DNA of 64,000 nt, taken from the sequence record NZ_CP143948.1. One strand, given 5' to 3'. The notes under the pieces were generated by a model, which worked only from the letters and a program-made list of their open reading frames with translations, was not told the origin of the DNA and ran no database searches. Position numbers and translations under genes: made by a program. This document shows, one piece after another, positions 66 through 52,802 of this stretch. This DNA comes from a plasmid. Every line of letters begins with the position of its first letter. The first letter of the stretch is position 1.

Positions 66-336
66 GGCGTAAGACACGGACATGCCACCAACCGCAAGGG
101 GCTCTCAATACGCTAACGCTATGCTGTCAAGAGGCTGTACGAATTATGCCTATATGGTTTTCTATGCTCGACGAAACCGGCTTTTATGCGCCGTCCATGG
201 CGCATAACACCTTGCCCTGCCGTCCATGGCAGGACATTCCTGGGTTCCATGTGCATAATTCTACAGACTCTAAACAGCTCCGCTAGTCGCTTATTGAGAG
301 CCCCTTGCGGTTGGTGGCATGTCCGCATCTTACGCC
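66..336 (+). repeat. Structured repeat element, copy A. Terminal stem 77-110/292-325 is a perfect 34 bp and extends to 66/336 across a 2x2 internal loop; it encloses a conserved ~180-nt core
   Basis: The arms are exact reverse complements. The core (111-291) matches the cores at 42502-42675 and 47843-48017 and carries the gcgcc-gtccat-ggcgc and cctgcc-gtccat-ggcagg hairpins. The tracked ORFs 14..286, 119..328 and 305..625 sit inside or across it and are treated as spurious. Confidence 0.8.
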
Positions 337-23262: not shown

Positions 23263-23344
23263 TGGGCAGAGATGGATTCGAACCATCGAAGCAAGTTGCA
23301 GCAGATTTACAGTCTGTCCCCTTTGGCCACTCGGGAATCTGCCC
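23263..23344 (-). tRNA. tRNA-Tyr (anticodon GTA, type II with long variable arm). The 3' CCA is not encoded
   Basis: The reverse complement reads GGGCAGATTCCCGAGTGGCCAAAGGGGACAGACTGTAAATCTGCTGCAACTTGCTTCGATGGTTCGAATCCATCTCTGCCCA: a 7-bp acceptor stem, anticodon loop ACTGTAAATCT and T-loop GGTTCGAATCC. Confidence 0.9.
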
Positions 23345-34976: not shown

Positions 34977-35390
34977 TGAGTTCTCCTTTTTTATTCTAAA
35001 TGACGCTCGCCGGAGGGGCACATTGCCACAGCATACAACTGTGACACATGCTCTCATAACTCCTTAGTCTGGTGAGAGTAAATACCTCCTGCGGCAGAGC
35101 TTATTAGGCGCGAAAAAATCAAACGCGCTTACGCTTGAACGAGTATTTTTTGCGCCAGCTTCAGCCGCAGGTGGCATTAACTCTCACACACGACACGTCG
35201 TAAATCGAGCATGCGCCACAGCCGTATGCTGCGTCAATGCGCCCCTCCGGCGAGCTGTTTATCATAATAATATACAAAAGTAATGATTAATTCGCGAAAT
35301 AAATTTTCGTAGACGGATGATTACAAACGCAGGCGTAGCGGTACTACGCCGAGGCTTGTAACATTCGTATACGGGAATTTAGGCGCGAAT

Positions 35391-42405: not shown

Positions 42406-42455
42406 ATTATACCAAATATATGCTGATTACGCTATATTTTTCTATAAAATTACGG

Positions 42456-42721
42456 ACCGCAGGTCACCGCCTGCCGGGCAACGCACATACTCCCCGTAAG
42501 CTACGCTGCGCGGCTAAGATTCTGTACGAAATTATGCTTACAGTCTTTCTATGCTTGACGAAACCGGCTTTTATGCGCCGTCCATGGCGCATAACGCCTT
42601 GCCCAGCCGTCCATGGCTGGGCATTTCTGTGTTTCATGGCATAATTTCTACAGTATCTAAGCCGCTTCGCTATTCGCTTACGGGGAGTATGTGCGTTGCC
42701 CGGCAGGCGGTGACCTGCGGT
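42456..42721 (+). repeat. Structured repeat element, copy B: a perfect 45-46-bp terminal stem (42457-42501/42676-42720) around the conserved core
   Basis: The arms are exact reverse complements, and the core aligns with copies A and C. Confidence 0.8.
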
Positions 42722-42749
42722 ACTTACTCTTTGCTAAAACTCAGGTACT

Positions 42750-47798: not shown

Positions 47799-48063
47799 TG
47801 CAAGTCCCGGCTGCCCGACCGGCCACACAGCTTCCCCGCGTGCTACGCTGCGCTACTAAGATACTGTACGGAATTATGCTTGAAGGGCTTCTATGCCTGA
47901 CGAAACCGTCGAAACGCGCCGTCCGTGGCGCGGTTCTCCTCGCCCCTGCGTCCATGCAGGAGCGTTTCTGTGTTTCATGGCATAATTTCTACAGTATCTA
48001 AGAAGCTTCGCTATTCGCACGCGGGGGAAGCTGTGTGTGCCGGTCGGGCAGCCGGGGCTTGCA
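47799..48063 (+). repeat. Structured repeat element, copy C: a ~44-bp terminal stem (47800-47842/48018-48062, one wobble and two bulges) around the conserved core
   Basis: Arms are complementary; the core aligns with copies A and B. Confidence 0.8.
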
Positions 48064-51138: not shown

Positions 51139-51337
51139 ATTATATTTATGTCATATTTTCACATATTTCTGATTTCTGCACCAGCTTGGTGCAGCTTATG
51201 AACCGACTCCATCTTGCGTATTATCTTGCGTATTTTCTTCCTCTATTATACGTATTTTATGTTGCTGGTCACACTGTTCGGTGTGAACAGTAACGATTTT
51301 ATATAAAAAGTGTAATCTGCAGATTCAAACCTCTTTT

Positions 51338-51460
51338 AAAAAATGCGATTTTGTGGTAAAATAGCAAAAAAGAAAATGCGATTTTGTGGTAAATCGTTGA
51401 AATAAAAAATGCGATTTTGTAGTAAAACATCAAAATAAAAAATGCGATTTTGTAATTTTA
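51338..51460 (+). repeat. Four phased direct repeats (~21 bp, period 33-34 bp) upstream of the DUF4143 ATPase gene
   Basis: AAAATGCGATTTTGT(G/A)GTAAA, with the atgcgatttt cores at 51343, 51377, 51410 and 51443. The last copy abuts the RBS (aggaga) of the gene at 51474. Confidence 0.8.
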
Positions 51461-51473
51461 TTAGGAGAATATC

Positions 51474-52802
51474 ATGTTTAAGCGAAAAATATATGATAAA
51501 TTATTGCAATGGAAAAAGGATTCCGATGGTAAAACAGCACTCTTAATCGAAGGAGCCCGTCGTATAGGCAAGTCAACCATCGTAGAGTCATTTGGACGAA
51601 ATGAATACAAAAGTTATATAATCATTGATTTCTCAATCGTCTCAAAAAATATACGTGAACTGTTTGAGGATATTTCAGATCTGAATTATCTGTTTTTGCA
51701 GTTGCAGCTCCAATACAAAGTCGATCTCTATGAGAGAGAGTCTTTGATTATTTTTGACGAAGTACAATTATGCCCCCGCGCAAGACAGGCTATCAAATCA
51801 CTTGTAAAAGATCACCGATATGATTATATAGAAACCGGTTCTCTGATTTCTATCAAAAAAAACGTACAGGATATACTTATTCCAAGCGAAGAGAGAAAGC
51901 TAAACATGTATCCTATGGATTATGAAGAATTTTTATGGGCTTTGAATGATGAAACAACTATCCCCCTAATCCATAAGCTATTCGATTCTCAAAAACCCTT
52001 CGGAGAAGAGATTAATCGTAAATTGATGCGTGATTTCCGTCTTTATATGCTTGTCGGGGGAATGCCGCAGGCAGTTGATGAATATATCAAAACCAATAAC
52101 TTCCGTAAGGTTGATGACGTGAAGCGTGATATTCTGAATCTTTATGAAGATGATTTCAAAAAAATAGATGCCACTGGAAAAATATCTATGCTTTTTGATG
52201 CAATTCCTGCGCAGCTAAACAAAAATGCTTCGCGATATCAGGTATCAAGCGTACTGACAAACAATCGCGCCGATAATACACTGGAACTGATTGCAGAGTT
52301 AAAAGACTCAAAAACTGTTTTGGTATCATACCATGCAAATGACCCAAGTGCCGGTATGTCAACCAACAAAGACTTAACCCGGTTTAAACTATTTTTATGC
52401 GATACCGGGCTGTTTACTACATTGATGTTTAAAGACAAAGATTTCACAGAAAACATAATTTATGAAAAATTGTTAAATGACAAGCTAGGAACTAATCTAG
52501 GCTATCTTTACGAAAATGTAGTTGCACAGCTTTTAACGTGTAATGGCAACGAATTATTTTACTATACTTTTTTTAATGAAAGTTCGCGCCATAATTACGA
52601 AATAGATTTTCTTATTGCCAAAAAAAATAAGGTTTGCCCAATTGAAGTAAAATCCAGTGGCTATAAAACCCATAAGTCCCTGGATGAATTTTCAATAAAT
52701 TTTTCAAACCGTATTCTTCAAAAATATCTCGTATATACAAAGGATTTCTCAAAAGACAAAGACATACTCTGTCTGCCTGCTTATATGATTTCGTTTTTGT
52801 AA
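51474..52802 (+). CDS. AAA-family ATPase with DUF4143 (AAA_14/DUF4143 family); AT-rich
   Basis: The N-terminus LLIEGARRIGKSTIV is a P-loop; family length and architecture fit. Confidence 0.75.
   Translation: MFKRKIYDKLLQWKKDSDGKTALLIEGARRIGKSTIVESFGRNEYKSYIIIDFSIVSKNIRELFEDISDLNYLFLQLQLQYKVDLYERESLIIFDEVQLCPRARQAIKSLVKDHRYDYIETGSLISIKKNVQDILIPSEERKLNMYPMDYEEFLWALNDETTIPLIHKLFDSQKPFGEEINRKLMRDFRLYMLVGGMPQAVDEYIKTNNFRKVDDVKRDILNLYEDDFKKIDATGKISMLFDAIPAQLNKNASRYQVSSVLTNNRADNTLELIAELKDSKTVLVSYHANDPSAGMSTNKDLTRFKLFLCDTGLFTTLMFKDKDFTENIIYEKLLNDKLGTNLGYLYENVVAQLLTCNGNELFYYTFFNESSRHNYEIDFLIAKKNKVCPIEVKSSGYKTHKSLDEFSINFSNRILQKYLVYTKDFSKDKDILCLPAYMISFL

Follow-up and report, generated by a model that had tools for sequence, protein, structure and literature searches.

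Positions 42502-42675 of a 64,000-nt stretch of sequence record NZ_CP143948.1 (hereafter the window, meaning the whole stretch analysed) hold two small hairpins with identical loops enclosed by a long-range helix, and the question raised by this locus is whether it encodes a folded RNA with a protein partner or represents a piece of palindromic DNA. The segment almost certainly belongs, over its full length, to the TwoAYGGAY RNA motif (Rfam RF01731). The feature flagged by an earlier sequence-only reading had therefore been found before and is part of a curated family, an orphan motif since 2010. TwoAYGGAY was reported from human-gut metagenomes, Clostridiales and gamma-proteobacteria and rated as 'probably RNA, not cis-regulatory', with a P1 helix that is 'often very large, e.g. 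24 bp' (Weinberg et al. 2010, Genome Biol 11:R31; PMC2864571). An Rfam scan of the window gave three matches to this model, all of them full-length (model positions 1-168 of 168) and all on the minus strand, where the gathering score is 43 bits. These are the flagged copy B (42503..42672; 159.2 bits, E = 5.6e-30), copy C (47845..48013; 148.6 bits, E = 1.5e-27) and copy A (116..285; 137.3 bits, E = 5.3e-25). The only other Rfam match in the window is one transfer RNA gene (23263-23344, minus strand). A second covariance model, R1, built from our first alignment of copies and the Rfam structure, gave copy B a minus-strand score of 161 bits and a plus-strand score of only 15 bits, and it likewise recovered three copies and no more from the 64 kb. 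Because all matches lie on the minus strand, the GUCCAU loops of the sequence-only reading are the complement of AUGGAC, a form of AYGGAY. Exact protein matches identify the host as Agathobacter rectalis (Agathobacter / Eubacterium rectale), the 64 kb being a stretch of its chromosome; it belongs to the gut Clostridiales and fits the host range of the family. The window copies show no difference from the published motif in their core, being full-length, with two AYGGAY hairpins, a large closing P1 and a gut Clostridiales host. Core identity among copies A, B and C is 81-86%, while their arms are far less alike.

Each copy forms the apex of a hairpin of 270-300 nt. Moving inward, this hairpin consists of an outer helix of 28-55 bp with variable sequence, a conserved internal loop and the P1 helix of about 25 bp. 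Beyond P1 follow an asymmetric internal loop (9 nt vs 21 nt) with conserved bases that include CGUCA, a junction helix of 5 bp and finally two adjacent hairpins, whose loops together with their closing pairs read CANGGAYG. All of the core elements, namely P1, the junction helix, the two AYGGAY hairpins and the conserved internal loop, are found in copy B. Its RNA hairpin 1, UGCCCAGCC-AUGGAC-GGCUGGGCA, occupies 42600..42623 on the minus strand (loop with closing pair, CAUGGACG), and RNA hairpin 2, UUAUGCGCC-AUGGAC-GGCGCAUAA, occupies 42571..42594 on the same strand; both assignments come from the sequence, the Rfam alignment and a loop census, the second also from invariant columns. The inner P1 helix of copy B is formed by the 5' strand CUGUAGAAAUUAUGC (42639..42653, minus strand) and the 3' strand GCAUAAUUUCGUACAG (42522..42537, minus strand), both in RNA sense, according to the sequence, the Rfam alignment and the fold. 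The two loops read AUGGAC and AUGGAC in copies B and A, and AUGGAC and ACGGAC in copy C.

The outer helix, or stalk, is not covered by the Rfam model. It adds 28-55 bp in every one of the 18 diverse copies that we compared (described below), and its sequence is unrelated between distant copies. The helix beyond P1 continues for 46-52 bp in the three window copies. For copy B the 5' arm (42676..42731, minus strand) and the 3' arm (42446..42501, minus strand) form an inverted repeat of 56 nt with 93% complementarity, which gives a continuous helix of 46 bp in the minimum free energy (MFE) fold. The whole element of copy A spans 66..336 on the minus strand, with outer arms at 66-113 and 289-336 (48 nt, 94% complementary; z = -18.0), and that of copy C, with approximate ends, spans 47799..48063 on the minus strand (MFE -172 kcal/mol, z = -16.3) and includes the region deleted or inverted in some strain alleles. 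Compared with dinucleotide shuffles, folding z-scores of the three copies are between -16 and -19.

The sequence details on which the sequence-only reading relied are all present in the DNA. Both hairpins of copy B were recovered, ttatgcgcc-GTCCAT-ggcgcataa at 42571-42594 and tgcccagcc-GTCCAT-ggctgggca at 42600-42623, and what it had called hairpins 1 and 2 correspond in minus-strand sense to RNA hairpins 2 and 1, respectively. Copy A carries the same first hairpin together with ccctgcc-GTCCAT-ggcaggg. Copy C indeed has cgcgcc-GTCCGT-ggcgcg and cctgc-GTCCAT-gcagg, but the seventh pair claimed for the first of these (a...g) is a mismatch. The long-range helix was also confirmed, since in copy B ctgtacgaaattatgc (42522-42537) pairs with gcataatttctacag (42639-42653) over 15 bp with one bulged c. 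The matching one-nucleotide deletions reported for copy A are real as well: one a and the opposite t are missing (gaattatgc / gcataattc), a compensated loss of an A-U pair that is shared by L055 (labels beginning with L denote comparison loci or contigs). The loop spacing had been given as 20 nt; the actual gap is 23 nt, or 28 nt from start to start.

The compensatory base changes among copies A, B and C were the central point of the earlier claim. Pairing is kept among them as stated, but the differences belong in part to gene-converted haplotypes and are not separate events. Haplotype blocks move between loci by gene conversion, so differences among the three copies are not independent, and the evidence that counts is a wider alignment. 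We assembled two such alignments. One contains 18 diverse copies from a scan of genome collections, all of which pass Rfam, from Agathobacter, Lachnobacterium, Lachnospira, Roseburia, Waltera and other metagenome-assembled genomes of Lachnospiraceae. A first pattern scan of genomes had been too loose, with only about 17 of 120 loci real and the rest mostly chance matches in GC-rich genomes. The other alignment holds 119 copies (109 distinct) from human-gut metagenomes, obtained by a metagenome scan and then R1. In the 18 diverse copies, 82.3% of cells are in standard pairs, compared with 60% after column shuffling and 38-40% when the partners are slid, and 41 of the 54 pairs show changes on both sides. 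The 109 distinct metagenome copies give a similar picture (86.0% paired vs 70.5% shuffled and 33-41% slid). P1 pairs covary in both alignments. The pairing pattern is thus far beyond chance, and the covariation noted in the three copies persists in both larger samples. Moreover, an R-scape analysis of the kind suggested by the sequence-only reading already exists, as the published Rfam 15 refinement gives R-scape-supported pairs in RF01731 (PMC11701678).

Two look-alikes were considered and set aside. A further intergenic hairpin of about 250 nt at 35005-35255 (arms 35005-35053 and 35207-35255; MFE -171 kcal/mol, z = -16.3), located between genes for prolyl-tRNA synthetase and a CCA-adding enzyme, has a geometry like that of TwoAYGGAY and an unrelated core. 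It was rejected as a diverged fourth copy, having no meaningful Rfam match, no R1 match and no relatives among the collected loci. A likeness to plasmid single-strand origins was likewise dropped, because conservation of the TAGCGT/TAGCGA-like strings close to the P1 base does not extend beyond the Agathobacter subgroup.

Copy B folds about equally well on both strands (-190.8 vs -185.8 kcal/mol). Across the core and P1, G.U pairs outnumber A.C by 109 to 42 in a count that leaves out a mis-registered pair, a conserved G.U pair and two loop-closing pairs; with the mis-registered pair alone restored, the count becomes 109 to 100. A single G.U pair is kept in 97 of 99 sequences. Tandem G.A/A.G pairs, also noted in PMC4333381, occur in hairpin 2, and the pair that the model mis-registers is such a tandem in its correct register. 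Conservation across the family is highest in the GCC...GGC closing pairs and the GGA of this hairpin. The G.U excess, the conserved G.U pair and the tandem G.A pairs favour an RNA made from the AYGGAY strand.

The sequence of the two loops points to a candidate partner. Rfam places TwoAYGGAY in clan CL00106, which covers Csr/Rsm protein binding. Gardner and Eldai (PMC4333381) found that both loops fit a model for sites bound by CsrA and proposed a CsrA-binding small RNA (sRNA) in Clostridia, with a CsrA dimer on the two GGA loops and validation in progress. The CsrA consensus from systematic evolution of ligands by exponential enrichment (SELEX) is RUACARGGAUGU with the GGA in a hairpin loop (PMC4347634), and that of RsmE is (A/U)CANGGANG(U/A) (PMC6849547). 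In our loop census, hairpin 2 reads CCAYGGANGG in 109/109 distinct copies and hairpin 1 reads NCANGGAYGN in about 90% of copies, and CANGGAYG, present in both loops, is the CsrA/RsmE consensus in its preferred hairpin-loop setting. The host has the gene: PMC3720852 reports csrA in the flgM-csrA locus of E. rectale, and all of the E. rectale, E. eligens and Roseburia genomes examined there carry it, while the immotile ErEurope subspecies lacks csrA (PMC7278147). A dimeric binding partner, as suggested by the sequence-only reading from its two identical loops, agrees with the CsrA-dimer proposal, itself a prediction from the loop match. The two loops are of a binding type as that reading had it, but the ones matching a known site sit on the strand opposite to the one it described.

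Two observations accompany the loop comparison. In the rows of Psychromonas ingrahamii (NC_008709) in the Weinberg 2010 alignment the loops read ACAUGGAUGU, closer still to the SELEX consensus, and the copies in this species sit among other local repeats. Neither csrA nor fliW was found adjoining the element in the window or in L001-L130 by tblastn with B. subtilis and E. coli CsrA and FliW queries, and a link of this kind was dropped.

The explanation that accounts best for the whole combines TwoAYGGAY identity, the hairpin anatomy and an apex that would bind CsrA, and we put it forward as a tentative first choice. Its most likely mechanism, which we hold a shade more cautiously, is that the transcribed AYGGAY strand may serve as a two-site clamp for one CsrA dimer. 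The AYGGAY strand would be transcribed most likely within neighbouring transcripts, and the stalk would let the apex fold independently in any context. Two GGA loops about 30 nt apart could then be clamped by both RNA-binding faces of a single dimer, so that the many dispersed copies would make up a distributed element that titrates or recruits CsrA in motile Lachnospiraceae. The long duplex may in addition offer a substrate for double-strand processing of the RNase III type and a barrier to exonucleases, which is pure conjecture. CsrA governs flagellin and motility in other bacteria.

A comparison with the Csr/Rsm sponge sRNAs (CsrB, CsrC, RsmX/Y/Z) shows both sides of this proposal. Similar are the GGA in hairpin loops with CANGGANG context, the presence of csrA in the host and the shared Rfam clan. 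In contrast to these sponges, a TwoAYGGAY unit has a very long closing duplex and lacks a detectable dedicated promoter or terminator, and it exists as many dispersed copies instead of one or few genes. Moreover, the host is a Firmicute, a group in which the known CsrA antagonist is FliW, and CsrA binding is here predicted from the loop match.

The genomic placement of the copies speaks to several alternatives. All are intergenic, with three copies in the 64 kb of the window and 19 extra ones in 784 kb of loci that had each been chosen as single-copy, giving about one copy per 20-40 kb in the sequence examined. Their neighbours are functionally unrelated, including type IV pilus genes and genes for solute-binding proteins, a hydrolase, an MCP, a GGDEF protein, TauE and NlpC/P60. 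Among 57 loci, neighbouring gene 3' ends number 30 on the element's 5' side and 32 on its 3' side, and gene 5' ends number 21 on each. The elements thus have no polarity relative to genes, with a mild preference for gene 3' ends (62 vs 42). A cis-regulatory leader was rejected on account of the unrelated neighbour genes and the random orientation. An sRNA gene with its own promoter and terminator was also rejected, as consensus scans, the only kind used, gave no signal at the three window copies or across 54 loci. Copy B does contain an internal plus-strand site resembling TGgCATAAT and a terminator-like hairpin 1. Neither is conserved across the family, and the former is limited to the Agathobacter subgroup.

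The same placement raises the possibility that the elements act as context-independent punctuation of transcripts, in which the duplex itself would be what functions, by stabilising 3' ends, by blocking transcription or as a place between genes where RNase III cuts, in either orientation, while the apex would bind a protein other than CsrA or only nucleate folding. We regard this as quite unlikely. It is consistent with the presence of the stalk in every diverse copy, with the equal folding of both strands and with the location of elements within a few tens of nucleotides of gene ends, more often at 3' ends. Copy B, for instance, lies 19 nt after the stop codon of a hemerythrin gene and lies just before a TTTGGTATAAT promoter-like site for a GGDEF gene, and in L212 and L209 one copy follows each gene. 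However, there is no U-tract after the stalk, and copy A is already preceded by a separate terminator-like GC-rich hairpin with a T-run, seen by eye although a terminator scan of 1-520 gave none. Punctuation also leaves the conservation of the apex and its GGA loops unexplained while the stalk sequence is free, and many arm mismatches within species are uncompensated.

The arrangement of copies relative to each other resembles that of DNA repeats. Among close pairs, 12 are head-to-head (5' ends facing) and three are tandem, at about nine distinct loci, and none is tail-to-tail; one head-to-head doublet has only about 25 nt between the two stalks. Such pairs were seen at L189 1502-1955, L016 4652-5265, L015 1353-2050, L133, L158, L168, L209, L223 and L054. 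L212 has a type IV pilus-like cluster with four similarly oriented copies, one behind each of four genes; here the whole hairpin, about 300 nt long, recurs as a unit with 88-89% identity, and the four copies are mosaics. We also found motifs at the ends of the unit, both outside the Rfam model. A 5' end motif, CCACA(A/G)CGTAAGG, is located at the stalk base 61-69 nt ahead of the model start. Of the 57 distinct loci about 24-27 have it, almost only in sense orientation and often after a T-rich run, and it is accompanied by a 3' end motif resembling CCGTACTA (examples are L146 6790, L206 8254 and L181 4624). In the window copies A, B and C these end motifs are absent or degenerate. No consistent target-site duplication was seen, a flanking CCACAA repeat occurring in only 3-5 of 24 loci, and an origin from phages or plasmids was discarded after zero matches in 2.9 million viral contigs, 72,556 plasmids and 50,697 phage records.

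Variation among strains adds to this resemblance. The genes flanking copies B and C match tens of thousands of assemblies, and we compared 10 contigs per locus among the matches listed. At locus B the element is kept in eight of the ten contigs, and L122 and L126 carry different deletions with junctions at GCAGG and ACCTG microhomologies (L122 3420-3450; L126 3400-3420). At locus C deletion affects three of the ten contigs and takes two forms, with CTG and CCGG as the microhomologies (L251, L259 and L257, around 2290-2330). The five short alleles of copies B and C are therefore imprecise deletions at microhomologies of 3-5 nt at the hairpin base, and such recurrent imprecise deletions are typical of long palindromes. 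A partly deleted allele was also seen at a head-to-head doublet outside these two loci. Clean empty sites were not found among the contigs of loci B and C and at the one doublet locus, where all short alleles are imprecise deletions. Proof of mobility from clean empty sites and target duplications was accordingly abandoned, with imprecise deletions only and the flanking repeat in a minority of loci. As a separate observation, the A. rectalis strain of L126 carries an IS110-family transposase (1067-2275) in a GntR regulator gene beside that for hemerythrin, and most of its GGDEF gene is missing.

The apex moves between loci independently of its arms. In L129 and L130 (3475-3651) hairpins of the copy C type are found inside the arms of copy B, and a second locus shows the same swap (L167 and L149 vs L189). 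This is gene conversion between dispersed copies that leaves the locus-specific arms unchanged. The core can also be inverted between unchanged arms. At locus C this is the case in L255 (on a 3.3-Mb contig), L198 and L226, and probably in L214, a partial match, whereas the window, like at least nine other contigs, has the uninverted form. Both orientations of the apex are clear at two further loci (L055 vs L154; L131 vs L196), and an inversion between L168 and L215 was flagged by the flanks, where the alignment is fragmented. Overall about 6% of orthologous pairs are inverted. Relative to the end motif, canonical polarity outnumbers flipped by about 24-27 to 2, so that inversion of the apex is a rare or occasional event, and the inverted arms probably recombine to give the flips.

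Both orientations at the same locus, seen clearly at three loci and probably at a fourth with the segment flanked by inverted repeats, might suggest a programmed invertible switch (inverton) whose arms are recombination sites and whose apex orientation toggles the expression of a neighbouring gene or the transcribed strand. This seems very improbable. The flipped polarity is rare, no promoter inside the apex is conserved across the family, and there is no common recombinase site, as the arms differ between copies. Ordinary homologous recombination between inverted repeats of 50-100 bp would be sufficient. Short-read assemblies might also mis-orient such a segment, although L255 comes from a long contig. 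Both this switch and transcript punctuation are less likely than a CsrA clamp or a DNA repeat.

Diversity within species separates the parts of the element. Arm diversity is 0.03-0.07, or 3-6 times that of flanking coding sequence (0.006-0.017), and many arm polymorphisms are uncompensated, while the unconverted core at locus B has a diversity of 0.008, compared with 0.011-0.017 in the coding sequence flanking it, and is at least as conserved as coding sequence. The apex is the part that selection keeps, across genera and within species; individual copies are dispensable and behave as DNA repeats.

The main competitor of the CsrA clamp is a palindromic DNA repeat, selfish or partly so and comparable to REP/REPIN, ERIC, Correia or BOX elements, with the hairpin of about 300 nt as the unit that spreads or is duplicated, and we consider it somewhat unlikely. 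A transposase or recombinase acting in trans would read its conserved apex hairpins and end motifs in the form of folded single-stranded DNA, and the apparent compensatory changes would follow from the need for a DNA hairpin together with arm-to-arm correction by template switching or gene conversion. Several facts speak for this explanation; among them the missing transcription signals, the random orientation, the doublets, the end motifs, the equal mismatch counts in the stalk and the dynamics at the DNA level fit it at least as well as they fit CsrA binding. The copies are numerous, strictly intergenic and randomly oriented beside unrelated genes, they form head-to-head doublets, the whole unit is repeated in L212, and about half of the loci have conserved asymmetric end motifs. 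Gene conversion, inversion and microhomology deletion, and the presence of the family in both Clostridia and gamma-proteobacteria, fit it too. In the stalk, G.U and A.C mismatches are equally frequent (48 vs 45), so there is no RNA-specific signal in the long closing helix, and palindrome repair at the DNA level could yield its apparent compensation. The transcription signals expected of an RNA are also missing: across the 54 loci consensus scans revealed neither promoter enrichment upstream (mean best score 7.9 vs 7.7 on the control side) nor a T-tract downstream of the stalk, and with random orientation read-through would yield the strand lacking GGA about half the time. As copies are deleted or inverted in some strains, single copies are not essential. 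Also counting against the CsrA clamp, each unit has two GGA sites only, the known CsrA antagonist in Firmicutes is the protein FliW and not an sRNA (PMC4347634), and a literature search gave no experimental report of TwoAYGGAY transcription or CsrA binding. The earlier conclusion of a folded functional RNA stands in part: the family is a curated RNA family with covariation, but it behaves as a palindromic DNA repeat, has no promoter or terminator signal and is not fixed in orientation. Classical sponges such as CsrB carry many GGA sites.

Other facts are difficult to reconcile with a DNA repeat. There is no clear target-site duplication and no clean empty site, and within A. rectalis no near-identical copies occur at different loci (80-86% identity). 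The central part of the arms shows no conservation of sequence from copy to copy, the reverse of what is seen in the terminal repeats of transposons, and nothing matched in the viral, plasmid and phage collections. A partner transposase was not identified in the window and the collected loci. The G.U excess in the core, the conserved G.U pair and the tandem G.A pairs fit an RNA better.

REP/BIME, REPINs, ERIC, Correia and BOX are multi-copy and intergenic, often located past gene 3' ends in either orientation and arranged in inverted doublets; they can form long hairpins when transcribed and vary among strains. TwoAYGGAY is likewise multi-copy, intergenic, unoriented and found in doublets. However, its centre is conserved while its arms are free, which is the reverse of terminal-repeat elements, its apex covaries in an RNA-like way across genera, and neither a target duplication nor a partner transposase was found. 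The inverted terminal repeats of parvoviruses such as adeno-associated virus (AAV) are T-shaped, a long stem capped by two small hairpins, and occur with flip and flop orientations of the tip. TwoAYGGAY shares the stem, the two tip hairpins and an asymmetric tip in two orientations, as a structural analogy only; it is chromosomal and internal instead of a replicon end, it shows no sign of hairpin-primed replication or a nicking protein, and its rare inversion is explained by recombination between the arms.

One further feature of the window is separate from the TwoAYGGAY copies. At 51304-51453 four copies of a motif (AAAAAATGCGATTTTGT and flanks) are spaced by 33 nt in a manner resembling an array of iterons or operators, just upstream of a gene for an AAA_14/DUF4143 ATPase (51474-52802).

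The extended stalk, the end motifs, the head-to-head doublets and the swapping, inversion and deletion of the apex are secondary features that the published accounts consulted here do not mention. A broader description, which we judge unlikely, is that TwoAYGGAY is no conventional sRNA gene and instead constitutes the apex of a polar, high-copy hairpin repeat of about 300 nt with conserved ends, serving either dispersed CsrA titration or a new hairpin-shaped mobile element. The long, evolvable and sometimes inverted palindromic context turns an unexplained motif into concrete hypotheses, with the warning that processes at the DNA level can produce covariation in long palindromes. If the tip belongs to a mobile element, it may be recognised by a dimeric enzyme acting on single-stranded DNA. 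If the AYGGAY strand binds CsrA, the copies would form a CsrA-titrating system dispersed over the genome, with a dose set by the strand that each copy presents to transcription, and TwoAYGGAY would be the first RNA in Firmicutes that acts as an antagonist or co-factor of CsrA. A real link of this kind would mean RNA-based control of CsrA in motile Lachnospiraceae, by a motif that is abundant in one of the commonest bacteria of the human gut.

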